From an uncultured Methanosarcinales archaeon (GTDB lineage Archaea > Nanobdellota > Nanobdellia > Woesearchaeales > GW2011-AR4): a stretch of 47,871 nt of DNA. Location of the stretch: contig CAZSIU010000003.1 in assembly GCA_964607225.1 (NCBI GenBank), positions 1 through 47,871 on the forward strand, in the 5' to 3' direction. Position numbers and translations under genes: made by a program. A model generated the notes under the pieces. That model searched no databases and was not told where the DNA came from. It saw only the letters and a program-made list of their open reading frames with translations. This document shows, piece after piece, positions 14,901-36,117 of the stretch. How positions within the stretch are numbered: the stretch's first letter is position 1; each line of letters begins with the position of its first letter.

Positions 14901-17900
14901 GAACAAACATGAAGTTATATTTAAACGGAATCTTAGATGCAAGTGTTGCAAGAGTTGGAAGTGGAAAACTAGCAGAAGAAGCTTTTATAGGAAGAATTGA
15001 CCCTGGAATGGGAGAAGCTTTCTTCAACGGCACAATAGATGAAGTTGCTATTTGGAATGTCTCGTTGTCTTCAGCAATAATTGCACAGCATTCAGGTTAT
15101 GGAATTGACAGGAGCATTTATGGGAATAATGCGACTTTGATGTTTAATACAACTGTTAATCAAAGCGGTAAATTTGGAGAGGCTATGCAGTTTGGTGGAA
15201 ATGGTTTCGTTAATGTTACTCAAAGCAGTAATTGGAATTTTAGTACTAGAGATTATGCAATTGAATTTTGGGTTAAATTTAGAGGATTTGTTAATAATGT
15301 GATAATGGTAGACCTTGGAGGAGATACTAATATAGAAACCAGAGTTCAGTATGATAATGTAAATAAAAAATTTGTTGTTTATAGAGGAGGTGATTTAGTT
15401 GTTAATACAGACTGGACAGCTTCGACAGATACATGGTATCATGTTGCTGCTTCTGTAAGCAGTAATAATGTAAGAGGTTACATTGATGGATCGCAAATAG
15501 GAACAGGCAGTAACACCAGACCTGTAAACAACACACAAAACCTGATAATTGGTGCTTTTAGAAATGCAAATGGCAACTTTGTTAACGGCACAATGGACGA
15601 AGTCGCAATCTGGAACAAAACATTATCTTCTGATTTAATAGCACAGCACGCAGGCGCAAAGATTGTTGATTATTCCAATTATGGCAACAATGGAACAAGA
15701 AACTTCAATTCAACAAGCGATTTTGGAAGGAACTTCACTGATGGAAAGTTTTCAAAGGCATTGTTGTTTGATGGAAAGAATGACTGGATAAATGTTACAA
15801 ATGCTTCTGGATTAAATATAATAGGAAATTCTATAACAATGGAAGCATGGGTTTATCCCATAACAATGACCACTAATAAGGCTGGTGTTTTCAGAAAAAA
15901 TAGAGGTGGACCTGATGGTGGTTTCATCTTTGATATAGATACTGATGATGGACTCAGAATGGTTCTAAATGTATCAGGTACTCAAACATTACTAACAACT
16001 GCTGGTATTCCTCAAAATAATGTTTGGAGCCATGTTGCTGGAACTTATGATGGAACAACAATGAGGCTTTACCTAAATGGTGTACAGGTTGCTTCACAGG
16101 CATCAAGTGGCTCTATTGGTGTAAGTGATGAAAACTTAATAATAGGTAATGACCCAACTTTAGTTTCTCCATTCAACGGCACCATTGACGAAGTAGCAAT
16201 CTGGAATGTAAGCTTATCATCAGATGAAATCAGAAAACACTACGAAAAAGGAGTTTTAAAATTAAACTTAAGCTACAGGACAAGCAATGATTCAACTGCA
16301 TTTAGCCAATGGACTCCTGTGCCAAATAACACATTAAGCACAGTTGGGTTTAGCATTGCTGATGACAGCTTAATAGATGTTGTTGAGGGTGTTGTGGTTA
16401 GAAATGAAAAAATAAAAGAAAGCGGATTCCTCAACATGGCCGAGGAGTGTCGAAGTACAGATGAGAGAGGAACAAATAACTATTTAAATGTTTCGATTTT
16501 AAATTCTGATAAGTGCAAAGCCGCGGAAGCTCAACATGGCCGAGCGCCCAGTTCTCAACTGGGTGTACTGTCGAAGTACATGCGGGTTCAAAACTCTCAG
16601 CGTAGAGTTGAGAGTCCCGTCCGCGGCGCATTAAAAACTAACTCTGATAATTCTGAAAATGTTGTTGTGAAGAATGTTAATGAATCCGCTTTCTTTACAT
16701 TCTCGTCCAGCAGAAATTTAAGCTTCCTGGAGGGGAACTGTGACTTTGACATTATCTCTTCCTCTAGTGAGATCAGCAGCATAGTGCAAGGCTGCCTTGA
16801 CATGCTCCTTTGTGAGAGGTGTTATGAAGCTTGTAATTATCTCTTCAACAGGCATGCCTGCTTCCAGCATCTCCAGAACCTGCCAGACCATGATTCTGGT
16901 GCCTTTGAAAGTGGGCTTGCCATGGCAGATTTCGCTGTCCGCAACGATGTATTTGTTGATTTCGATTCTCATGATGTTGATGAGGGTAAAGGGCTATTTA
17001 AAGGTATCGAAAATCAAAGATTTTCGGGACTCCCGAAAATGCAAAGCATTTTCGATAGTATCGGAAATCAGGAAATAATCCCAATTGATGAATTCAAGAA
17101 AATCTGCCCAACACTTGACTGCAATGTAGTTGATTACATAACAGCAAAGAAGAAGATAAAAGACATTAAAGAAGGAGACATTGTTTTATCTTTGGATGAA
17201 AACTCTGGGAAATTAAAGCCTGCAAAAGTCAATGCCTTGCTTGACCATGGTATAAAACCAATATTTGAATTAAAAACAATTTCTGGCAGAGCAATAAACA
17301 CAACTGCTGAGCATCCGTATTTAGTAAAATTATATGATAAAGCTTTATGTGATAAATATGCAAATACTTTCTGGAATAAAATAAATGAAAAAGAAGAAAA
17401 CGGGTTCCATAGCCAAGCTATTGCACCCAACCAAGATCTGATTCCTTCGCGAACAAATACTATAAAACAAAACCTATTTAAATATCTTTCGGTTGAAAAT
17501 GAAGGGACGAAGCTGGGGTCGCATAGCCTGGCCAGTCGAATGCGAGTGAGCTCGTTCAAAAGCGAACTCGCTCACAACTCACTGTCAGACCGAGGATCTG
17601 ATTTCCTTCGCGGATCCGCGGGTTCAAATTCTCTCAGCAATGAGATGAATCTCCCGCCAGATGCATGCGAGTCGCTCGCATGCTCGCGACATCTACCAGC
17701 GTCAAAAATTAGTTCTGAAAATGAATTTGAGCAAAATGGCTATTGCACAAGATGGGTTGAGGCTTCAGAATTAAATGAAGGCATGGAGATTGCTGCGCCT
17801 AGGATAGAAAATGATGTTAATCAAAAAGAAAAATACAATAACAATGGTGTTTCCTTTAATGTTCCTGTTTTAGGGTCTACACTAAAACCAAGAGATTCCA

Positions 17901-20900
17901 ATACCACAACTCCGATTAATACCTTATCTATGATTTCTGATATTAAGACTCGAGTTACATCTTCTTTACCTTTGATTTTTATACGAGCTTCACCTTCGTT
18001 TAATTTAATTATACCTCCGCCTGATTCTACTTCTCTTTCAGCTAAAGCTTTAATTTCAAGTCTATCTGCTAATTCTTTTGGCAGTACTGTTAAAGTTGCG
18101 CCTGTGTCAACTAAAGCTTTGACCTTTTCAGAGTGCTTCCTTTCTAAATCAAATATTTCCGCTTCAACCCATGAATGTCCCATAAACACAAGTAACAATA
18201 ATGATATATTTAAAGATATTGTTTTTGAAAAAATTGCCTCAATTAATGCTTTTGACAAGCAGCACGTATATGACTTAAGCATTGAAGGAACAAAAAACTT
18301 CATTGCAAATGACATTATCGCTCATAATACTGCAAGATACTTCCAGTACAAAGCTGATTTCAACACAACAGACGCAAAATATTCACCGATATTGAATAAT
18401 GTAACAATTAACTATTCTGGAATATTCACTGATGCTTTTGGAAGGTATAACTTTACTATAACTGCAGGCTCAACAGCCAAAACCTATGAAGTCAAGGCAA
18501 ATACAACATTTGAAGGCTTAAATGGACAGCAAAATAATACGTTTAGGGTTACTGCAATTCCTGTAATTAACAGAAACTTTACAATTCCAACATTCCCAAG
18601 ATTTGGACAAAATGTCACTTTTGTTGTTAATGTAACAGATGCGGACAACAATATATTGTATATCAACTTCACCTTGAAGCCAGCAAATGGAAGCATAATT
18701 AACTTAACTAATGGAACAAGAGTTGGAGATTTGCACAATGTTAGCTTTAATTTAACTAACTATGGAACTTGGTTCTGGAACATAAGTTTGACAGATGCAG
18801 ATGGCTTTATTGTAAATATGACAGGAACTGGAGAGATAATTTTGATGCAGATAACTGTTAATCTGAATGCAACTTTAGTTCCTGCCTCATCTCCTATTGC
18901 TGTAAGTGGGCATATTAATTTATCTAATGGAAGCAATGTGAGCAATAATGTAATTAGTATTTTTGTAGATGGAACAGAGCAAATATCACTACATAACTTT
19001 ACTGATGATACTGATACAGATTTCAACGCTGGAACGTTCATTAATGTTTCAGTGCAAGGAACTGGAACTCTTGCTAATTTGACATTAAACAAGAATGAAA
19101 GCGGTGCCTATCCAAATATGACAGGAAACTTCACATCTCAGACATTCAATGCTGGCGGTGTGGCCAATTGGAGCTATATAAGCTGGACAGATGTTGCAAA
19201 CAACAAATATGGGCAAGATTTAGGCGATTCAATAAATGCTTCTATGGTTTTGTATATGAAGTTTAATAATGATACTTTGGAATCTGAGAGGCAGTTGAAT
19301 GTAACTCATAACATTTCTGCTGAAACTAATCTTGTTTTGTATATGCCGTTTGACAGCGCTGCTGCAAGAGAATTAACGCAGAATGCAAGCACAATTTTAT
19401 TATTACATTTCAACAACAGGAGCGATTGGGGTGAAAACAACACTTTCTTTGTTGACAATAGCACTTATAAAAATAATGGAAATTGCACTGGAACAGGCTG
19501 TCCAGCAGTTAATACAACTAATTATAAGTTTGGAGGAGCTGCTTTGACTTTTGATGGCATTAATGATTATGTTAATATTAGCGATAAAGACAGCTTGGAT
19601 GCTGTTTCTGCCTTTAACGGAACAACTGTTGAAGCGTGGGTTTATGTGGCTGGAAGCCCAACTGCAACACACCAAGTTGTGTATAAGAGTAATGCTTATT
19701 TCCTTTCGGTATTATCAGATGATACAGTAAGATTCTTAGTATATGAAGAGCCAGCTGGCAATGGTATATTTGATGCAACAACTACTACAACTATAAACAG
19801 AAATGAATGGCATCACCTTGCAGGAACATTTGATGGCTCTAATGGTAAAGTGTATATTGATGGGGCATTAGCAATAACAGATTCTGTAGACGCTGGAGAA
19901 AGGGTATATCAAAGCAATACATTCTCATTAATGATAGGTTCTGCTAATACCCTTGATGCTTTCTTCAACGGCACAATTGATGAAGTAGCAATATGGAATT
20001 TAAGCTTAAGCTCTGGAGATATTGCAAAACATTCAGGTTATGGAATTGACAGGAGCATTTACGGGAATAATGCGACAGTAATAAATGGAACAACTGTAAA
20101 CTTTACTAGTTTCAAATTTGGTGAAGCCATGACATTCGGCACAGACAATGATTTTGTCAGGATTAAAAACAATTCACTTATAACATTTGGAAATGGGGTG
20201 ACAGATAAGCCTTTCTCAATAGAAGCTTGGGTTAATTATAATCCCTCTACTGCTAGACTTGGTTGTGCAATAGCAGCAAAATCCAGCGAAGGAGGAGAGC
20301 ACGAGTATATTCTTAATAAAGATGGCGATGACAGATTGTTTTTAATCCTATATAACCGTACAGGCAATAGTGCCATCAGACGCATAGCAAATCACAATCT
20401 CACTTCATTATTAGGCAATTGGATTCATGTAGTATCAACATATGATGGAAGCAGCAGCGATACAGGAATAAAACTATATCTAAATGGTGTGCAGCTGTCC
20501 ACAACTAGTGCTAGTACAGCACCATATGTTGCCATGACTGGCAGCAGCGACTTACTGATTGGTAGATGGAGACCAGATTCCTGTAATGTCACAATAGATG
20601 AGTTTGCCATTTGGAATACTACTTTAACCCCAGACAAAATCTCAGAACACGCAGGCGCAAAAATTGTTGATTACTCGCAATACGGCAACAATGGAACAAG
20701 AAACTTTAATTCAACCTCTGACTTTGGAAGGAACTTTACAACAAATGCTAAATTTGGAAAGGCTTTGGTGTTTGATGGGGTTAATGATTATGTGAATGTT
20801 ACTGATTTACCCTCAATGAACGCTTTAACTCTTGAAGTATGGATTAATCCTAGCGATGTTTCAACTAATAATGTTATACTCGGTCATAATTTAGCTGGCA

Positions 20901-23900
20901 ACAATAATGGAGATGTGAATTTTATAGTTAAAACAGACGGGAAACTATATTTCCTTTTGAGTGACGGAACTTCAGAAACAGAAATTAATACAAACACAAT
21001 ATTAAATACAAATACATGGTATTATACTGCTGCAACTTATTCTGGCTCAACAATGACGATTTATCTTAATGGTCTAGCCGAAGTTACAGGCACAATTAGC
21101 AATGCAAATCCTTTTGCTTTTTCTGGTAATCCAAATGTAGGAGGAGATATAGATGGTAAATCAAACTTCTTCAACGGCACCATTGACGAACTCTCAATCT
21201 GGAACGTTTCTATTGAGTCAAGCTTAATTGCACAGCACGCCCAAAGAGGCTTAACAAATCTAAGCATTTATTACTCTGCTTCAAATGACTCAACAACATG
21301 GTCAGATTGGACAAGGGCAACGAATAATACTTTGACAGCAGTTGGATTTTCAATTGCAGATGACAGCTTGGTTGATGTTGTGGATTATGTTGTTGTTAGA
21401 AATGATGTAATTAATGATAATTATTCAACATCAAACAATCTTTTAATGTCGTCAGTTGATAATATATCAATTTCAGATTGTTCTTTGAACCTTTTTTCAT
21501 TGGACCAAATAGCGCAGTCAGAGGCTAATGCCAATGCAAAATATGGCATATCCTTGGAATGCCCAGCCAATAACTTCAAAGCTTTGGATTCAAACTTCTT
21601 AAATTCGGATCTGGGAACAACATCAGTTATTTCAGACAATAAAGCAAATGATATTATAAACTCTAAACCGCCTATGCCGCAAAACTTGCAGATTCTTTGT
21701 TTAAGCTTATATAATTCATCCAGCGCAAAATCAGGAACAATCAATTTAGCTCCTTTAAGATACGCAGATTTAAGCAAATTCCTTGTAAAAGATTCAGGCT
21801 TAAAAAATGAGAATAAAACACTGGCATCAACAACAATCAATCTCATCTGCAATGCTCCAAATTATGGCATGTATCTTTTAGCCAAGTTGTCTCTATATTC
21901 TTCCACAAGTTCTGAGAAGTTATCATCAGTAAGCTTGCTTTTCTTTAATATATCATCAACTGCCTTAAACAAGAGCAATATTTTAAGTTTCTCCTCTACA
22001 GCGCTCCTTAATAATGATTTAGTAGCGGACTTATTAAGCTCGTCCCCAATAATTTCATTAAATCTATCAGGAATTTCAATCCTTAATTCAGCCATTTTAA
22101 TATCACCTAAAGAAACCAATGAAAATGCATATTTAAAGGTTGTGGTTAATAGTAAGGATTTAAAAGAAAATAATGAAAAAGAAGAAAATCAGGCACGTAG
22201 CTTGGATAAAACTTCTGTTTGGCGAACGGAGATTTTAAACGAATTCTTTGTGGATTCGGAAACTACCAAAACTCACACTGTAAGTAGCAATAAACAAGAC
22301 AAATATAAAAATCTTTCGGTTTTAGATTCAGACTATTCAATAATCCCAATTGATGAATTCAAGCAAATTTGCCCAAGCATTGATTGCGGTGTTGTTGATT
22401 ACATAACAACAAAGAAAAAAATCAAGGATGTTAAAGAAGATGATTATGTATTAAGCTTGGATGAGAAAACTGGAAAAATAGTTCCAGCAAAAGTCAATGC
22501 CTTGCTTGACCATGGTATAAAACCAATATTTGAATTAAAAACAATTTCTGGCAGAGCAATAAACACAACTGCTGAGCATCCGTATTTAGTAAAATTATAT
22601 GATAAAGCTTTATGTGATAAATATGCAAATACTTTCTGGAATAGAAACACATTAACGGATATAAAATCAACAATAACGACTTCTGAAAGTATCAAAAATA
22701 ATGAATTTGATGAAAAAGACTATTGCACAAGATGGGTTGAAGTAAGCGAATTAAAAAAAGAGATGGAAATAGCTGTACCTTATTATAAAACAGGCGCTGT
22801 TAAATGGGAGAAGATTGCTTTTATAACTACTTTAGACGAGCAGCATGTCTATGATTTAGCGATTGAAGGCACTCAAAACTTCATTGCAAATGATATAATT
22901 GCGCATAACACTGCAAGATACTTCAGATACCTAGCAAAATTCAACACAAGCAATTCTAATTTAAGCCCAATATTAAATGATGTAACAATTAATTACACAG
23001 GCATATTCACAGATAACTTTGGAAATTACAACTATACATTTAATGCTCCAACTACTGCAACAACTTACACTGTTAAGGTTAATGCAACAAGCAACAACAT
23101 TCCAGGAGAAGCTTTAACTACATTTAGAGTAACTGCAATTCCTGTAATTAACACAAACTTTACAATTCCAACATTCCCAATGTTTAACAGAGATGTAACT
23201 ATTGTTGCAAATGTAACTGATGCAGACAATACAATTGTTTATGTTAACTTTACTTTATATGCTCCAAATGGAAGCATAATTAACTTAACAAATAGCTCAA
23301 GAGTTGGTGACTTGCATAATGCAAGCTTTAATCTAACAAGCTATGGAACTTGGAGATGGAATATTACTGTATTTGACAGTGATGGATTTTTGGTTAATTC
23401 AAGTTCAACAGGAGAAATAATTTTAATGCAGATAACAGAAAACTTCAATGTAACAGCAACTGAAGCTAATGCATCCATCTCTGTTTCTGGGCATGTTAAT
23501 TTAAGCAATGGGACAAATGTAAGTGATTCTTTAATTAGTATTTTCTTTAATGAGGTTTTGATGGGAATAAATAACTTGACACCTGTTGGAAATTATAAGC
23601 AGAAGCAGTTTGTTGATGATAGTGATAGTGATTTCTTGAAAGGAAATTTAAGCATTAATTCAAGGGTTGTTGGAACTGGTGCTGGTGCGAATGTTACAAT
23701 AAACATAAGCTCATTGCAAAACCAAACTCAAAACATACAGCAAAGAGGCATTACTGTAAACGCTTCAACTATTTTATATCTAAGATTTGAAGAGGGGACT
23801 GGGCAGTATGCGAATGACAGCTCTCAATATGGAAATAATGGAACATTTGGAGCAACAACTGCATCTGCAAGCGATGATCCTGTATGGAATTCAAGTGCTA

Positions 23901-26900
23901 AATTTGGAAGTTTTGGAGTGAGTTTCAATACAAATGATTTTGTGAATATTAGTGATAGCAATAGTTTGGATGTCGTAGGCAATTTGAGTATCGAAGCTTG
24001 GATTAAACCAAATTCACTTAGTGCTTCTGGTAGAGCGATGCTAGTCGATAAGGCAGATTACCCAACTGCTAATGATGTTGGTTACACAATATTTTTGGAT
24101 CCTAGTGGCTCTAATTTAATTATTAATGGATTTATTGCTAACTCTGGCGGTTCTTGTCAAATAACTGGAACACAAGCTTTTACTTCAAATGAATGGCATC
24201 ATGTAGCATTTACCTATGATGGTGTAAGAGGCAGAACTTATGTTGATGGACTTACTGACACTGATTCCGCATGTACACAAAGTCCAGCAGCAAATGCTGT
24301 GCATTTAACTGTTGGTATGACTAGTGATGCTAGGAATTTCTACAACGGCACAATAGATGAAGTAGGGATATGGAATATAAGTCTTGATAATGCAACAATC
24401 TTACAACACTACCAACTCGGCTGGGGTTACTTTAATACTTCAAACTTCACAAGCCAAGTCTTTGATGCAAATGCAGTTGTGAACTGGAGCTATATTTCAT
24501 GGTATCAAGGCGCTGATGACAAGGGAATAAGCAATTTATATCAGCAGGATTTGAGCAATGTGATTAATGCTTCAACTGTTCTTTACATGAAGTTCAACAA
24601 TGACACTTTAGAATCAGAGAGGCAGTTGAATGCAACTCATAATATTTCTGCTGAAACAAATCTTGTTTTGTACATGCCGTTTGATTCTGCTAATGCTAGA
24701 GAATTGAAAGAAAATGGAAGCACTGTTTTATTGATGCATTTCAATAATGATACAGGAACTGGGGAGAATGCAAGTTTGTTTTTGAGCAACGCTACATTTA
24801 GTAATGTTACAAATGGAACTTGCAATCTTGCCTCAGGTTTCTGTCCAGTATTCAATAAGTCAAATGCAAGATTAGGAGCAGCTGCTTTAGAGTTTGATGG
24901 AGTGGATGATGTGGTTAATACAACATTCAAACCGAAAAACATGTTAGGAACAAATAAATCATTTAGCATATCCTTATGGACTTTCCTTAAGAGTGCTAAG
25001 AATCAAAACTTTATACATACACCTGTAGGAGATGGAGGAGATAGATTTTATTTTATAGTAGATACTGGTACATACATTATTGGATTAGGAAGTCAATTTA
25101 AAGATACTGGCATAGTGCCAGTAACAGGCTTCTGGCAACATTTGGTTGTCACTTGGAATGGAAGCAGCTCTCTTAAGCTATATGTTGATGGTGCTCTAAG
25201 AAAAGAAGAGTCTTATACTGGAGACGGGCAGCCTGCAAATGGTAATATGGTAATAGGTGCTAGTGCTAGCGATGGTTCTCTTGTAATAAACGGCACCATA
25301 GACGAAGTCGCAATCTGGAACATTTCGCTTTCATCAGGAGACATAGCAAAACATTCTGGTTATGGAATTGACAGGAGCATTTATGGGAATAATGCAACAT
25401 TGATGAATGGAACTATTGTAAACCAAAGCGGTAAGTTTTTTGAGGCAATGCAGTTTGATGGAAAAGGAGATTTTGTTAATTTATCAAATGATAGTGATTT
25501 TAATTTTGGAACAGGAGAGTTTGCAGTTGAATTTTGGATGAAAACAACTGATACTTCTGATAATTCTTTGATTGATAAATCTATTTCTGAATCTCCTTTC
25601 AGTGGATGGTATTTCTACTTTAGGGGTGCAGGTGACATTGATTTTTTCGCAAACAATGATGCCAATACTCTGGATGGAAAAATTAAAACAAATGATGGTA
25701 ACTGGCATCATATAACTGCAACAAGAAGGGGTACTACTAGTTATTTATATGTTGATGCTGTATTAGATGTAAGTGCAGCTCATTCTTCAAATGATAATAC
25801 TGCCGCGGCTCTATTAATAGGTACACAACGTAGCTCTGCTCTTTTCTTCAACGGCACAATGGACGAAGTAGCAATCTGGAACAAATCCTTATCTTCTGAT
25901 TTAATAGCACAGCACGCAGGCGCAAAAATAATTGATTATTCGCAATACGGCAATAATGGAACGAGGAATTTCAATTCATCTTCAGACTTTGGAAGGAATT
26001 TCACAGACGGAAAGTTTTCAAAGGCGTTGTTGTTTGATGCTATAAATGACTATGTTAATGTAAGTGATAGTAGTAGTTTAGATATTAATAATAGTCTTAC
26101 TATTGAAGCATGGGTTAAATTTGATGGACTACCTAATGATAATATGAATATAGTTTCAAAAGGTGATACAAGTATTGCCAATTATAATTATAATATTAGG
26201 ACCAACCTAGCACAATTAGATTATGCGTGGAAATGTTGTGGAACTACTGATAATGTATATAGAACAACAAGTAGTGTCCTTACAACAGGTGTATGGACAC
26301 ATATTGCTGCAACGCATGTAAGTGGGAACACACCAAAAATCTATATAAATGGAATTGAACAATCAGCTAGTATTACAAGTGGTGCTGCTACTACCCCTTT
26401 AAATTACAGCGCTGATCATCTATATATTGGTAGTAGAGGAAGGAATGAAGCTAGTGGTGCTTTCGTGAACGGCACCATTGACGAAGTAGCAATCTGGAAC
26501 ATTTCATTATCAGAATCAGAAATAAGAAAACATTATGAAAAAGGAGTTTTGAAGTTAAACTTAAGCTACAGAACAAGCAATGATAGCACTACATTTAGCC
26601 AATGGTATGGTGCGGGAAATAACACTTTAAGCACTGTTGGGTTGTGTGTTGCTGAAGACAGCTTGATAACATTGGCAAATGGTTCAAAGAAAAAGATAAA
26701 AGAAATTCAAGAAGGGGAGTATGTGCAATCTCTTGATGAAAAGACTGGTAAAATTGTTACAAATAAAGTAAATGCTTTGTTGGATATGGGCAATAAGACA
26801 GTATACCAATTAACAACGGAATCTGGAAGAGCTATAAACACGACAAAAGAGCATCCTTATTTGATTAGAATTTACAAAAATTCGAATTCATCGGGAAGAA

Positions 26901-29900
26901 GTTTAATAACTTTGCCCTCAATTTCTTCAGGAGAATGCTGCTTTAGCAATTTAGAGATTGAGCGTTTCTGTGCTTCCAAGTCTTTTGCACGGATTCTTAA
27001 TAGCCAAATTCCAAAGTGCTTAGAAGAAGCAAATTGCTCATCTGTAAAATGTTTGTCACGTGTAATCAGTAATCTTTGCTCTGATAAAGTCAGTTCAAAT
27101 ACTTCTCCATTCTCAATACCCTTAGGAGATAATTTAACGTCATGTCCTAATTTGGATAAGAAAGAAAATAAGCCTCTATGCACATTTTCATCAAATAAAA
27201 ACTTCATTTTAGGCAGGGACAAGTTCGAAACTTCTTTCTGTGAGTTGAGCAGCAAACTGCAAAGCTGCTTTGATGTGCTTTTTAATCAAGGAAGGGTATG
27301 CTTCAAGGATTTCTTTTGCAGTAGCTCCATCTTCGAGCATTTCCAGAACTATCGAAACCATGATTCTTGTACCTTTGAAAGTAGGCTGTCCATGGCAAAT
27401 ATTGGAATCAACAACGATATAATCATTAATTTCGATTCTCATGAAATAAATAATGATAGTTCAGTATTTAAATATTACGAAAATAATAGTGCTTCTCTGC
27501 TTGAGCTAAAAGACGAGCTCATAGAAATTAATAATGTTACAGCTAAATGGGTTAGAGTAAATCAGTTAAAAAAGGGAATGGAAATTGCTGTTCCTGATTA
27601 TGAATCAAATACAATAAAGTGGGAGAAAATAGTATCAATTAATGTTTTAGAGCCACAGCACGTCTATGACTTAAGCATTGAAGGTACTAAAAACTTCATT
27701 GCAAATGACATTATTGCGCACAATACAGGAAGATACTTCCAGTACAAAGCAGACTTCAATACAACTGATGCAAGATATTCTCCAATTCTAAATAATGTAA
27801 CAATTAACTATTCTGGCATATTTACAGATGCTTTTGGCAACTATAATTATACTTTTAGAGCTCCATCAAGTGGTTCTTATTCAATTAAAGTTAATGCAAC
27901 TTATGCAAATATTTCAGGAGAAGCATTTACAACATTGCAAATAGACACATCTGCTCCAAGGATTAACTTTACAAGGCCAACTCCTGCAAATAACTCAAGA
28001 GCAGTTGGAAATGCACAAAAAATAAACATAAGCATTACAGATAATGCTGTAAGCAGATGCACATTGCAAGTTCATAATGGAACCGACAATGCAACAAATT
28101 TCACAATGGAAATAAGAGGCTTAAACTGTAATGTAACTATAACAACACTTGATGGCTACAACTATACTTTAAAGGCTTATGCAACAGACACTGCTGGAAA
28201 TGAGAATTCAACTGAAAACCATACATTTAGAGAAAACACAAAACCAGAAATTCCAACTTTAAATGCTCCTGCAAACAACTCAAGATTATTAACAACAAGT
28301 GTTATATTAAATTACACTACAAATGACAATGATACAGACAATGTAAATTACATTGTTTACTTTGACACAAGCACAAACCCAACAACAATTGTATATAGAA
28401 GCACTTCAAAAACATTTGTTGTTTCAACAACAAGAGGCACAACTTACTTTTGGAAAGTGCAAGCAGATGATACTTTTGAGAACTCAAGCAACTCAACAAT
28501 AAGGCAATTCACTATCAACTCATTACCTCCAACACCATTAATAATAACCCCAAATTTAACAGGAATACAGCTTAGAGGCTCTCAAACTTATAATGTAAGC
28601 TGGGTTAATTCAACAAGCGATGCAGAAGGTGACCAAGTAAATATCAGCTTATATTATTCAACAGATTCTGGACTTACATATCCTAATTTTATAACTAGCA
28701 ATCTAACCAATAATGGCACATATGGTTGGCTAGTGCCAAGCATTGACAGCAACAAAGCAAGAATAAAAGCAATTGCAACTGATAGCTATGAAACTAGTGA
28801 AGATACTAGCGATAATGATTTCACTATTGACAGCACTGCTCCTACAATAACTCTAGACAATCCGCCAAATGGAAGCAGCTTTAATAATGGAACCTTCATT
28901 AACTTAACAATAACAGATAATTTAGTTGGTGGAATAAATGTAAGCTGGAACAACAATAGCTATGTTGGTGCTCCAAACAGGACTGACTTCAATGGAACTT
29001 ATGACATCAACACAACTGATTGGCAAGTTGGAGAGGTTAATATTAGCGTTTATGCAAATGACAGTGTAGGCAACTTAGCAACTGCTTACTTTAGGTTTAG
29101 TATAACAGATGTACAACCAGTTGTCACCTTCAATGCTCCATCTCCAAATCAAGTAATAAGAGCTACTTTTAGAGTAAATGTAAGCTCAACTTCACAACTT
29201 GATGATGCTGCTTTTGTTAATTTCACCTATGAAGGCGCAACACAAAACTTTACAATGACTCAAGCTGGAAATGATTATTTCTATGACTTTGATACAACAA
29301 CTGTTGCAGATAGGCAAAGAAGGCTTTCTGTTTATGGAAACAATTCTGCTGGAACTGTTGTAAGAGCTGATATATTTGCAACTATTGACAATACTGCACC
29401 TGCAATAAGGCTAGACTCTCCAGCCAATGACACTTGGAAGAATTCAAGCGTTACATTTGTTTATGTACCGAATGATGTAACAACAAGCATTGTAAATTGC
29501 TCATTGATAATTAATGGAACAATAAACAGAACCAATAGCAGTATTTCAGAAGGGATAGAGAACTTATTCAGCAATGTTGTCTTTGGAGACGGCATCTATA
29601 GATGGGATGTTAATTGCACCGACACAATTGGCAATAATGGCAGCAATGGAACTGCAAGGCTATTAAAAATTGATACAATAATACCAACAATTACGTTGCT
29701 AGACCCACCAAATGACACATCAATAAGAGGCAACAAAACAATTAACTTTTCTGTAACAGACTCTGGAGGAGCTGGTATTGCTAATCTAACTTGGAGCAGC
29801 AATTACTTATTGGACCAGACATCATTTATTGGGACTTATGGCATCAACACAAGTGAATTCCCAGAAGGAAAAACAAACATTACAATAGTTGCAAACGATT

Positions 29901-32584: not shown

Positions 32585-35500
32585 ATGGCTTTGGCATTTA
32601 AGAGATATATTTACAAGCATGGAAAAAAGCTTGGCCCTTATTATTATGAGAATATTCGTGGCCCAGATGGAAAAGTCAAAACAATTTATGTTGGCACAAA
32701 TCCAAGTCATCATCCACAGCATATAATAAGAAAGCCATTGTTTTTTTTGATTATTGTTTTGCTACTTATCTTGATCCTAGGTGGTTCTTTATTTTTGCTG
32801 CAGAATAAAGCATACTTGATAAAAAAGGTAAGAGTTCAAGAACCGGATTTCAACATTGACCAGCTCTTGCTTAAGGTCTTGGTAAGAAGCAACGAATTTC
32901 TGGAAAAGCAAGTAAGGGTAATGAATACTGGGGATGAGCAATCAACAATAAATGTTGAGGTTCAAGGCTTATTTGATATTGTAAAAATTGACTCAAATTC
33001 TTTTACAATAAAGCCAGGACAAACAAAGATTTTGAGCTTAAATTTCTCTTCTTATAATGAAGAGCAAAAAATAGAGCATCATCCTGGTGTTTATGTTGGC
33101 AAGCTTATTGTTAGTTCTGAAAAGGCATCTAGAGAAGTTCCAATAGTTGTTGAGATTGAAACAAAGAACGTTCTTTTTGATATGAACCTCAACCCAGTGG
33201 CTATTGAGAGAAAGGTTAAGCAAGGTAGCGATACAACAATAGAAGTTAGGTTGTTCAATCTTCAAAGCATTGAGTCTGCAAATGTAGATGTTGAGTATTT
33301 TGTCAAGGATATGAATGGCAACACTATACAAACAGAGAGCGAAACTGTTGTTGTAAAAACTCAAGCATCTTTCTTCAAGACTATATCTATACCTAGCAAT
33401 TTAAAGCCTGGCCCATATGTTTTTGCAGGCTTAGCAAGATTTGGCAACTCAATTGGAACATCAAGCTATTTGTTTGATGTGATTGGCCCAGAAGCAGAAG
33501 CAAGCTTTATTCAGTTCTGCAAAAATAGTGTGCTATGCTTAGGCTTGTCAATAACAACTTTGCTTTTATTATTTGCTTTAATGGCTTATCTATACTTCTT
33601 TGTTGGAGCTTATTTGTATGAGAAAGTTACTGGAGTAGTCACTATACCAAGAAAGAAAGAAGAAGAGATTGAAGAAGAAAGCGTATTTGACAAAATAAGA
33701 AATAAAATTGAAGAATGGAAGGCTGAACGAGAAGCAAGAAAGGCTGAAAAGGAAGAATTTGAAGGAAAAGATGAATTGCTAAGATTAGCAGAAGAAAGAA
33801 AAAAAGTATTGGCAAAGCCAAGCAAAAAGCTAAGCAAATTTTATGAAGTTCTAGATCAAGCAAAAGATGCTATTAACAAAAAGAACATTTCTGAAGTAAA
33901 AAAGCTTTATGTCAAAGCAAATGACTTTTACATTAATTTGCCAGATAAAGAAAAACAACAAGCTTATAGGAAGTTATTGGAGTTGTACAAGCAAAAAAAC
34001 TTGCTTGCAAAGGAATTTGAAAAAGAAGAGAAAATAAGACAAAAAGAAGAAAAAAGAAAGGCAGAGATAGAAAGTAAAAAGGAAGAGGCGTTAAGAAAGC
34101 AGAGAGAGCTTGAAGCGAAAAAGGTAGGAGAGGAAGAAAAAAGAAGAAAGCAAGAGGAATTAAAGAGGCAAAAAGAATTTGAAAGGCAAAAAGCTGTGGA
34201 AGAAAGTAAAATAAGAGAAGAGAAATTAACAAAGCAAAAAGAAGAGGAGCAAAGAAAAGCTTTAGAGGGAAAAAGGGAACTTGAAGAAGAAAGAAAAAGA
34301 AGAGAAGAACAGGAAAAATTACAGAAAGAGCTTGAAAAGCAAAGGCAAGAGCAGCTTAAAGCCCAAAAGCTTGAGACAATAAAGCAGATTGAGAGCAAGC
34401 TAATAAAAAATAAAGAAACGATAGAGCAGCTTAAATCTGAATTAAGGAAATTAGAAGAAGATAAAAATATTTTATCTAAGAAAATTGATGAAATTGAATC
34501 TGACTCAAGTAAAATTGATGATGAAATTCTTGAAAAATCCAAGCAGATTGATGAGATAAACGAACAAAAGAGTTCTTTATTGAGTACTTACAAGAAGCAG
34601 ATTGAAGAGTTAAATGAAAAGCAGGAAGCTGAAAAAATTACTAGAGGCTTAAAAATAAGAGAGTTGAGAGCTAAGTTAGCAGAAAAGCAACAAGCTTTAA
34701 TGAGAGAGCTTGAGGAAGAGCTAAGCAAGCTTGGTCCTGCCAAGAGAAAGAAAACAGAGAAATGGAGAAGGATGGAGCTAAAGGCGAAGCTAAAGCTTGA
34801 TGAGCATGATTTTGAAGAGGAAATTAAAAAATTAGAAAGCAGGACAACTGATGAAAAGAAAGCAATTGAGGATAATTACAAGAGTTCTTTAAAAGAAATA
34901 AACAAAAAGCAGAATGAAATTAAGATAAAAATTTCTGATTTGGAAAAAGAAAAAGAGCAAATAATACTTGAGAAAGGCAGTATTCCAAAAGAATTGCAAA
35001 ACAAAAACAATCAAATACAAAAAATAAATCAGCAGCTTGAATATCTTGAAAAAGAAAGAGAACAGCTTAATGCAGAGCTACTAAAGACTAAGTCAGAGTT
35101 GTCTAAATTCAAGGGATTTTTCAGCACTATAATTTCAAGCTATAAAGAAAAGGCTCAAAGAAGAAAAGAATCAAAAGAAGAAATAAAAAGGCTAAAGCAA
35201 GAAGAAAAGCTAAAGCGTGAAGAGGAAAAGAGAAAAGCTAAAGAAGAAAAATTAAGGTTTGAAGAAGTAAAGGGAAAAGAAGAAAAAATAAGCTTGGGAG
35301 AAATTGAGCTGGAAGAATTAGAAGAAAAAAAGCCAGCAGAAAAGAAACCAAGCTTCTTTAAAAGGTTGTTCAAGAAAAAGCCAGAGCTTAAATTAGAGCT
35401 CGAGGAAGAGCCAATTGCAGAAGAAAAATTCTTTGGAAAAACAAAAACAGAGAAAGAAGAAGTTAAAGAAATAAAAGAACTTGAAGAAGAAAAAGAAAAA

Positions 35501-35893
35501 ATAGAAGAGAAAAAGCCAGTAAGCGAGTTAGAAGAGCTAGAAGAAGCGATAAGAGGCTTAGGCTTGTTTAAAAAAATAGAGAAGGAAAAGATTGGCAAAG
35601 CGAAGCCTGAAGAAATTAAATTAATTGAAGAGAAAAAGCCAAGCATATTTGGAAAACTGTTCAAAAAAGAAAAAATAACAGAAATTCCTATAAAAAAAGA
35701 AAAAACAAAAAGCAAAAAGCTTGAGAAATGTCAAAAAGCATTAGATGAAGTGAAAGAATTAATTGCCAAAAATGATATTACTAAGGCAAAGAAGCTTTAT
35801 GTCAAGGCAAGAGAACTTTATGTTGGTTTAAACTCTGAAGAGAAAAAAGAGCTTTATAATAAACTAATGGAGTTGTACAATAAACTAAGATAG
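32585..35893 (+). CDS. Membrane protein with extracellular Ig-like domains and a long cytoplasmic coiled coil
   Basis: GPYYY N-terminal motif, two TMs flanking a beta-rich region, K/E-rich coiled coil, two helical end-repeats; GAGGTG SD. Confidence 0.8.
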   Translation: MALAFKRYIYKHGKKLGPYYYENIRGPDGKVKTIYVGTNPSHHPQHIIRKPLFFLIIVLLLILILGGSLFLLQNKAYLIKKVRVQEPDFNIDQLLLKVLVRSNEFLEKQVRVMNTGDEQSTINVEVQGLFDIVKIDSNSFTIKPGQTKILSLNFSSYNEEQKIEHHPGVYVGKLIVSSEKASREVPIVVEIETKNVLFDMNLNPVAIERKVKQGSDTTIEVRLFNLQSIESANVDVEYFVKDMNGNTIQTESETVVVKTQASFFKTISIPSNLKPGPYVFAGLARFGNSIGTSSYLFDVIGPEAEASFIQFCKNSVLCLGLSITTLLLLFALMAYLYFFVGAYLYEKVTGVVTIPRKKEEEIEEESVFDKIRNKIEEWKAEREARKAEKEEFEGKDELLRLAEERKKVLAKPSKKLSKFYEVLDQAKDAINKKNISEVKKLYVKANDFYINLPDKEKQQAYRKLLELYKQKNLLAKEFEKEEKIRQKEEKRKAEIESKKEEALRKQRELEAKKVGEEEKRRKQEELKRQKEFERQKAVEESKIREEKLTKQKEEEQRKALEGKRELEEERKRREEQEKLQKELEKQRQEQLKAQKLETIKQIESKLIKNKETIEQLKSELRKLEEDKNILSKKIDEIESDSSKIDDEILEKSKQIDEINEQKSSLLSTYKKQIEELNEKQEAEKITRGLKIRELRAKLAEKQQALMRELEEELSKLGPAKRKKTEKWRRMELKAKLKLDEHDFEEEIKKLESRTTDEKKAIEDNYKSSLKEINKKQNEIKIKISDLEKEKEQIILEKGSIPKELQNKNNQIQKINQQLEYLEKEREQLNAELLKTKSELSKFKGFFSTIISSYKEKAQRRKESKEEIKRLKQEEKLKREEEKRKAKEEKLRFEEVKGKEEKISLGEIELEELEEKKPAEKKPSFFKRLFKKKPELKLELEEEPIAEEKFFGKTKTEKEEVKEIKELEEEKEKIEEKKPVSELEELEEAIRGLGLFKKIEKEKIGKAKPEEIKLIEEKKPSIFGKLFKKEKITEIPIKKEKTKSKKLEKCQKALDEVKELIAKNDITKAKKLYVKARELYVGLNSEEKKELYNKLMELYNKLR

Positions 35894-35907
35894 ATAAAAA
35901 ATAATTT

Positions 35908-36117
35908 TTATCTTAAAGAATCTTCAATTGGCTTTTTTGATTGCTTAACCTCTTTTTGCAAATCAACTCCAAGCTCTTGCAAGTTTTTGATGTGCATCTG
36001 CATCAATTGCTCAACTATTGATAGTATCTTAAGCATCTCTTCCCTCTCTTTTGCTAATGTTGTTAATGCTCCTTTATGGAAGCCAATCTGCTCGTCCTTG
36101 CTTATGTCCTTTGGCAT
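35908..36117 (-). CDS. Small hypothetical coiled-coil protein
   Basis: 69-aa ORF with a minus-strand TATA-like box at ~36140-36147. Confidence 0.7.
   Translation of the reverse strand: MPKDISKDEQIGFHKGALTTLAKEREEMLKILSIVEQLMQMHIKNLQELGVDLQKEVKQSKKPIEDSLR

Follow-up and report, generated by a model that had tools for sequence, protein, structure and literature searches.

The stretch of DNA analysed here, 47,871 nt of contig CAZSIU010000003.1 from an uncultured archaeon (assembly GCA_964607225.1; hereafter the window, in the genome G000), carries a giant open reading frame (ORF) that encodes a surface protein with three inteins. Nested on the sense strand within the first intein lies a gene for a class-II (Ser/Leu-type) tRNA whose anticodon, CUC, is that of Glu. 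Judged from sequence comparison, this gene belongs to an accessory lineage of class-II tRNA genes with the discriminator G73 in a Woesearchaeota-type genus of DPANN archaea. Its parts are arranged as follows:

16520-16628 (+), class-II tRNA gene with G73, A8 and anticodon CUC, recognised by cloverleaf reading, fold, the covariance model R1 (123.9 bits) and ARAGORN after insert removal
16520-16526 paired with 16621-16627 (+), acceptor stem of 7 bp
16529-16545 (+), D arm with a 4-bp stem and a 9-nt loop containing G18G19, preceded by A8 and A9
16554-16556 (+), anticodon CUC in the 7-nt loop UUCUCAA, with U33 and A37, on a 5-bp stem
16564-16580 (+), variable arm of 18 nt, with a 6-bp stem and a 5-nt loop
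16593-16614 (+), 22-nt hairpin within the T-loop, visible in the fold and presumed to be an intron at about position 59/60; with the hairpin cut out, the T-loop is the 7-nt UUCAAAU
16628 (+), discriminator G (G73)

An initial annotation, made from the letters of the window alone, had described a full cloverleaf with a 6-bp variable arm, a G discriminator, the anticodon CTC and an A8, and each of these elements is present where it was placed. All arms of the cloverleaf exist, but the T arm is not a plain 5+7+5 structure, since the 22-nt hairpin sits in its loop. The T stem is a 5-bp helix (GCGGG/CCCGU), the bases for tertiary interactions are in place (G18G19, U54U55C56, A58 and A15:U48), and the variable arm, longer than 10 nt and with a stem-loop of its own, assigns the gene to class II and contains two compensatory pairs. 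The 112-nt native stretch folds at -56.5 kcal/mol, compared with -34.5 +/- 3.6 kcal/mol for 200 shuffles, none of which equalled it (z = -6.1). ARAGORN returned 0 tRNAs for the window and Rfam no match there at the gathering score; RF00005 gave the unedited gene 13.7 bits over model positions 9-63 only, below its gathering score of 29 bits. These misses are not evidence against a tRNA, because the T-loop insert breaks the match; once the 22 nt had been cut out by script, ARAGORN called an 88-nt tRNA(ctc).

The nested gene is frame-open DNA of intein 1 in the giant ORF, in agreement with the location given by the initial annotation:

8927-32461 (+), giant ORF of 7,844 codons, a LamG/Ig-repeat surface protein with N- and C-terminal membrane segments and three inteins (Laminin_G_3, E 1.1e-179; Big_7)
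16352-18328 (+), intein 1, from Ser1 to the HN before Thr+1, with a Hint domain that two foreign-gene islands interrupt (Intein_splicing, E 2.2e-20, and comparison with the other two inteins)
21350-22909 (+), intein 2
26645-27724 (+), intein 3

The giant ORF has 0 in-frame stops, against a mean of 596 in shuffles, and intein 1 possesses a Hint/splicing domain, Ser at position 1, a TxxH motif and a terminal HN followed by Thr+1. The giant frame is stop-free across every island of foreign genes, a state that none of 2000 shuffles reproduced for any island; the remaining sense frames contain 8-37 stops. Of 2000 shuffles, 18 leave the tRNA module by itself without a stop, and none does so for the whole island. 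In addition, contigs assembled independently from two public DNA runs match the window without difference, over 16177-16718 in run X1 and over 16299-16613 in run X2; as these contigs span the extein, the intein start and the tRNA, the nesting is not an assembly chimera. One X1 DNA contig joins 16372 to 17282 and omits the first island of intein 1, which may represent a related island-free intein, although the sides of the junction are short, the support is weak and the contig was not used.

The 321-nt region around the nested tRNA is single-copy in its own genome, and a BLAST comparison with 60 relatives revealed full-length matches in two genomes of the same genus only (78% identity in G005:C69 and 75% in G001:C3). 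When the covariance model R1 was searched in 43 genomes of the genus, the G005, G001 and window genes took the top three scores (131.7, 130.1 and, for the window gene, 123.9 bits), and matches from outside the seed alignment reached at most 86 bits. A fourth orthologue, in the genome G118 of another genus, shares the acceptor, A8, T stem and G73. The anticodons of the orthologues are CUC in the window and G005, GUC in G001 and GAA in G118, which indicates that the anticodon is uncoupled from the tRNA body. Standard pairs fill 81 of 81 pair cells (27 pairs in three copies), against 37-61% in slid controls, and three pairs have changed on both sides. The T-loop hairpins of the orthologues are unrelated in sequence, yet both fold, and ARAGORN calls a tRNA in all four orthologues once the insert is removed. 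In our judgement the gene very probably encodes a real RNA of tRNA type whose structure is under selection, and a chance fold in coding DNA is not the explanation.

The genomic surroundings of the orthologues vary. The G001 copy is intergenic, flanked by a 193-aa ORF without assignment and a gene for an RnfD/NqrB-like membrane protein, and the G005 copy lies downstream of ordinary metabolic-looking ORFs at a contig end; both are outside giant ORFs and have stops in the frame that is open in the window. The G118 orthologue sits in the linker of a giant ORF that is open over the whole 3.1-kb locus, and G004 has a decayed copy of the module inside a long ORF. These genome comparisons show that the tRNA gene moves between contexts as a module, with four contexts represented (intergenic, after ORFs, intein and giant-ORF linker). 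Pattern scans of public genomes and metagenomes added no new member, as L078 (in a GC-rich bacterial coding region) and L081 were rejected as chance matches and L082 as other class-II tRNAs; two scans of viral contigs gave 0 matches.

The module includes upstream elements as well as the tRNA gene:

16415-16459 (+), decayed and incomplete duplicate of the 5' part of the tRNA itself (pseudo-acceptor, D arm and 3' strand of the variable arm), recognised as direct repeats
16481-16489 (+), TATA-like box with TTTCG after it, found ahead of the tRNA in every module copy and presumably an archaeal promoter
16415-16437 and 16674-16696, left arm (at the 5' end of the module) and right arm of a 23-nt inverted repeat whose arms are 91% complementary

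The order of decayed 5' self-copy, TATA-like box with TTTCG and tRNA is shared, the D-arm stem of the self-copy is compensated, and in each genome the partial self-copy agrees with the tRNA of the same genome. An 18-nt block at the start of the module (16415-16432) is invariant in four of four genomes and the remainder differs by 20-25%. The inverted repeat is specific to the window, its right arm being missing downstream of the G001 copy. The module architecture is repeated at further class-II genes of the genus, with a start-to-start spacing of 114-128 nt (for example L034:750-784/865-899, L052:1382-1411/1497-1526 and window 17400-17455), and each self-copy there follows the sequence of its own gene. 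The self-copy may have originated by tandem duplication or gene conversion, or may be a binding site.

A wider view of the lineage was obtained from the approximately 155 R1 matches in the genus, of which 94 distinct genes, mostly above about 43 bits, were fetched and aligned after the duplicates L058 and L073 had been dropped; the counts that follow cover these only. Ninety of the 94 are class II, and among the 90, G73 is present in 89 and a T-loop insert in 88. Leu-type anticodons predominate (63 of 90: CAA 18, GAG 16, CAG 12, UAA 12, AAG 3 and UAG 2), ten genes have Ser-type anticodons, one could not be read because of its insert, and 16 have anticodons that are neither Leu nor Ser (GAU 6, AUC 3, CUC 2, GAC 2, GAA 2 and GUC 1). 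Among genes with enough upstream sequence, 51 of the 59 Leu-type ones have a self-copy of at least 9 exact nt, as have 15 of the 16 neither-type genes and none of the nine Ser-type genes. Twenty of the 90 lie inside same-strand frames that have at least 298 codons or are open over the whole fetched locus, all 20 on the sense strand, although one of them (L138), with a frame that begins just 36 nt upstream, is doubtful; on the opposite strand, no frame across any of the 90 exceeds 150 codons, the length of the longest. Related inteins of G020 (L034) and G003 (L040) bear modules in the same Hint loop as in the window. Similarly, orthologous giant surface proteins from two genera, in G012 (L031), G004 (L052) and G118 (L159), hold a module at one linker position, where the tRNAs differ: CAG in G012, a decayed odd copy plus UAA in G004, and GAA in G118. 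AUC, GAU, GAC or GAA was also observed on several class-II G73 bodies (L121, L127, L142, L126, L132, L049, L148, L051, L125, L135, L149, L067 and L129), and long ORFs enclose each of the three AUC genes as well as the two GAU genes that belong to the GCTGGGT family. The description of the gene in the initial annotation holds, whereas its interpretation had overlooked the T-loop insert, the upstream module, the orthologues with GUC and GAA and this genus-wide nested population; the three roles it put forward, a missense tRNA, a nuclease decoy or a non-translational RNA, are candidates.

The canonical tRNAs of these archaea are distinct from the nested gene. The tRNA-Glu(CUC) of G000 is a separate class-I, A73 gene (G000:C19:8019-8141), and since the class-I body with a short variable region is absent from the nested gene, it was not classed as a canonical tRNA-Glu; the claim of a Ser/Leu-type body with a Glu anticodon is borne out. 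The canonical tRNA-Leu genes found on C157, C17 and C71 of G000 (anticodons GAG, CAA and UAG, read through introns) and at L113 of G020 all have A73, share a motif in the variable loop and lack the upstream self-copy, and a canonical tRNA-Leu of the genus was rejected because the nested gene has G73 and a different variable loop. A tRNA-Sec was rejected as well, as neither the UCA anticodon nor the 9/4 (archaeal) branch is present. A class-I tRNA-Asp(GUC) was found in G020. R1 scored the insert-free canonical tRNA-Ser genes at 41.7 and 45.3 bits and the canonical tRNA-Leu genes at 18.7, 18.6 and 6.9 bits. Seryl-tRNA synthetase (SerRS) identifies its tRNAs by G73 and the long variable arm, without reading the anticodon, and the nested gene has both features. 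The long variable arm supports the earlier Ser/Leu typing; G73, however, is a weak Ser discriminator here, because 89 of the 90 class-II genes carry it, mostly with Leu anticodons, while canonical tRNA-Leu has A73.

SerRS is encoded by one gene in each of the five genomes searched (on C123 in G000) and leucyl-tRNA synthetase (LeuRS) by one gene in each of four of them (on C76 in G000); no second SerRS or LeuRS gene for the G73 population was found in these five genomes, and thus a spare synthetase does not explain the extra tRNAs. The splicing endonuclease EndA was found in three of four genomes searched. A stem-matching scan of G000 indicated that nearly all of its tRNAs, class I included, carry T-loop inserts of about 20-83 nt, with several inserts in one gene, and revealed many more tRNAs than the 12 that ARAGORN and RF00005 each find in this 70%-complete genome.

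The islands of foreign genes have a noise-like sense translation in each intein, and it is their antisense strand that codes for real proteins. Intein 1 also holds a second nested tRNA gene. The features are:

16687-16752 (-), remnant of a DUF5615 (Mut7-C/PIN-like) toxin gene, its first ~12-20 codons, in intein 1 (BLASTP against the intact DUF5615 of intein 3, E 1e-6)
16718-16972 (-), DUF433 (antitoxin-type) gene, codon-for-codon opposite the giant frame, in intein 1 (E 4.2e-19)
17400-17483 (+), upstream part of the second tRNA module, with its partial self-copy and its TATA-like box
17512-17701 (+), second nested class-II tRNA gene, with anticodon GAG and G73, in intein 1, an orthologue of an uninterrupted G001 gene (L062)
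17821-18315 (-), retropepsin-like aspartyl protease ORF in intein 1 (gag-asp_proteas, E 5e-9; DTGA motif)
21424-21861 and 21865-22188 (-), PIN_2 protein and upstream small ORF in intein 2
26875-27285 and 27212-27460 (-), intact DUF433/DUF5615 pair in intein 3

The DUF5615 remnant ends at the start of the 23-nt inverted repeat. Beyond its T-loop insert, the second tRNA gene is interrupted twice more, at ~17535-17582 in the D region and at ~17660-17695 in the 3' strand of the acceptor, and L062 has neither of these two inserts. The toxin-antitoxin modules of the inteins occupy the usual place of a homing endonuclease.

Several known systems resemble parts of this arrangement. Inteins may hold a nested homing-endonuclease gene in a loop of the Hint domain, and intein 1 likewise carries foreign cargo in a Hint loop that is removed from the host protein by splicing; here, however, the cargo is a sense tRNA with a promoter-like box together with antisense toxin-antitoxin and protease genes, for which the intein frame is merely stop-free. 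Archaeal tRNA genes may be disrupted by introns at non-canonical positions, and the T-loop insert, the multiple inserts per gene and the encoded EndA recall this class, although no canonical bulge-helix-bulge motif could be drawn by hand around the T-loop insert.

Closer parallels in tRNA form come from bacteria and nematodes. Bacterial allo-tRNAs (Mukai et al., NAR 2017, PMC5389517) combine G73 with a long variable arm, and their anticodons are mostly not those of Ser, GUC being one of the predominant kinds; their genes are often located beside toxin-antitoxin genes or transposon-related ORFs, and some allo-tRNAs were regarded as missense suppressors and others as perhaps not used in translation. 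The nested gene shares the long variable arm, G73, a non-Ser anticodon (GUC in G001) and toxin-antitoxin neighbours, but it is archaeal and nested in an ORF, its T-loop is interrupted by an insert, and a self-copy precedes it. Allo-tRNAs are defined (PMC5389517) by an acceptor/T branch of 8/4 or 9/3 and by a long D stem that ends in a tetraloop, and their anticodon stem is lengthened; the nested gene folds as 7/5, and with its 4-bp D stem, 9-nt D loop and 5-bp anticodon stem it was, on the D-arm definition, not assigned to them. An 8/4 fold is conceivable if A8:U65 replaced the G49:U65 wobble, and all these positions are invariant in the three copies. The nematode nev-tRNAs (Hamashima et al., NAR 2012, PMC3333845) are class-II, tRNA-Leu-derived molecules with Gly or Ile anticodons that are charged with Leu whatever the anticodon and can misdecode sense codons in vitro. 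The anticodon shift on a class-II body is common to both systems, with 63 of 90 relatives of Leu type and 16 of others; the nev-tRNAs differ in being eukaryotic, nematode-specific and not nested, and in having a Leu-type discriminator, whereas the nested gene has G73 and canonical tRNA-Leu here has A73.

The reading that we tentatively favour is that of a genuine accessory class-II tRNA module, nested in an intein and subject to anticodon-blind charging with Ser or Leu. The module would have entered an insertion-tolerant loop of intein 1, replacing the body of the DUF5615 toxin gene, and one stretch of DNA would then have two uses, as a tRNA gene and as stop-free filler codons removed with the intein by protein splicing. 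As the peptide across the tRNA gene is discarded with the intein, the nesting is free of cost to the host protein unless a stop arises. Transcription would start from the module's own TATA-like box, and the T-loop insert would be excised by the machinery that processes most tRNAs of the organism, which we infer because nearly all G000 tRNAs carry such inserts. The resulting 88-nt product may be charged without regard to its anticodon, by SerRS, as suggested by G73 and the variable arm under the identity rules given above, or by LeuRS, as suggested by descent from relatives with mostly Leu anticodons; in translation, it would read GAG as Ser or Leu, not Glu. That the gene is transcribed and matured as a tRNA is reasonably probable; that the product is charged with Ser or Leu rather than Glu is plausible, at slightly under even chances; and a measurable missense contribution seems unlikely. 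A broader proposal appears quite improbable, namely that giant surface-protein genes and inteins are heritable nests for self-transcribed accessory class-II tRNAs and antisense toxin-antitoxin genes, in which Ser/Leu charging is kept while anticodons drift from Leu to Ile, Phe, Val, Asp and Glu, so that programmed low-level missense diversifies the host surface proteins.

A number of observations weigh against the favoured reading. The nested tRNA has A8 where U8 is near-universal, and there is no oligo-T tract 3' of the gene, though canonical tRNAs of the same genome have one. Hand placement of a canonical bulge-helix-bulge around the T-loop insert failed for splice positions 56/57 and 59/60, and the minimum-energy fold, inspected by hand, has one 6-nt bulge and a 9-bp hairpin at this point. 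No RNA run containing the locus was found. Covariation was drawn from three sequences only, and since 10 of 500 shuffles reach the observed score it is supportive, not decisive. The intact lineage is rare (three of 43 genus genomes, with a decayed copy in a fourth), as fits a dispensable or selfish element, and the Leu anticodons of 63 of the 90 relatives argue that the population as a whole decodes normally. Finally, the G73 and GUC of the G001 copy fit what we take to be the usual identity set of aspartyl-tRNA synthetase (AspRS), so that an orthodox Asp or Glu role is allowed.

Some of these points fit a relic, that is, a once-functional class-II module that landed in the intein and was kept as stop-free filler while its anticodon drifted unread. 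A clearly decayed copy occupies a like place in G004, intact copies are confined to three of the 43 genomes, the orthologue anticodons differ, A8 is atypical and the adjoining toxin gene is a stump. We nevertheless regard a relic as unlikely, in view of the 27 of 27 pairs intact in all three copies, three of them compensatory, the conservation of the promoter-like box and of the 18-nt upstream block, the perfect cloverleaf kept despite the demand that the same DNA remain stop-free, and the intact orthologue in another genus. The exclusively sense orientation of the 20 ORF-embedded genes, with no opposite frame longer than 150 codons, would instead suit a cis-acting tRNA-like element for which decoding is irrelevant, either cut from the 23-kb mRNA as 'punctuation' or serving as the cleavable leader of an internal transcript; the recurrence of one linker position with different tRNAs in orthologous giant proteins of three genomes points the same way, as does an anticodon that is free to vary. 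Such a role is rather improbable, because the closest orthologues, in G001 and G005, lie outside long ORFs with the same upstream module, and because Leu anticodons retained in 63 of 90 relatives would be unexpected for a purely structural role.

Two further explanations are, in our estimate, very improbable. One ties the gene to toxin-antitoxin systems, for which it would either act in cassette mobility or offer an RNase toxin of PIN/Mut7-C type a decoy or a replacement substrate, as has been proposed for some bacterial allo-tRNAs. The tRNA indeed lies exactly at the break of the DUF5615 gene of a DUF433/DUF5615 pair, inteins 2 and 3 contain an intact PIN_2 gene and an intact DUF433/DUF5615 pair, respectively, and allo-tRNA genes, GUC being among their predominant anticodons, are often near toxin-antitoxin systems (PMC5389517). 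In contrast, the G001 neighbourhood was checked and has no toxin or antitoxin, the G005 and G118 copies are without such neighbours in the stretches read, and the partner toxin is destroyed in the window. The other sees an orthodox extra tRNA-Glu (tRNA-Asp in G001) with an odd body, in which glutamyl-tRNA synthetase or AspRS reads the anticodon and G73 and ignores the long arm. The canonical anticodon loop (U33 and A37) and the presumed Asp identity set in G001 would agree with this; nevertheless, class-I tRNA-Glu(CUC) and tRNA-Asp(GUC) already exist in the genus, the G118 orthologue has a Phe anticodon (GAA), and in its body, insert and upstream module the gene belongs with the Leu/Ser-shaped population.

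In the literature, no report was found of tRNA genes nested in inteins or giant ORFs, or of such tRNAs in DPANN archaea or Woesearchaeota, and the nesting of a tRNA in an intein beside antisense toxin-antitoxin genes appears to be undescribed. Class-II tRNAs whose anticodon contradicts the body are raw material of genetic-code change and are known from nematodes, yeasts and some bacteria. The favoured reading, if true, extends anticodon-shifted class-II tRNAs to DPANN archaea, with an orthologue series of four tRNAs that have differing anticodons on one body. Inteins and giant-protein linkers can serve as gene nests, and one stretch of DNA can be under RNA-structure and open-frame constraints together. 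In addition, T-loop inserts hide tRNAs from standard finders, which makes tRNA complements and codon-reassignment calls unreliable for such archaea.

Two minor observations concern the wider sequence. A GC-rich palindromic repeat of ~45-60 nt, with the core GCGAGTGAGC ... GCTCAC, has 37 copies in the 1.06-Mb G000 genome, located between genes and inside tRNA genes (D region and variable arm), among them a nested tRNA of the window, where copies lie at positions 1797, 5777 and 17542, and looks like a family of small mobile hairpins or mini-introns. Within the ORF at 32585-35893 (+), purine skew and A-over-T skew are strong at 34001-36000 (AT skew 0.49 and 0.40; GC skew 0.46 and 0.29).

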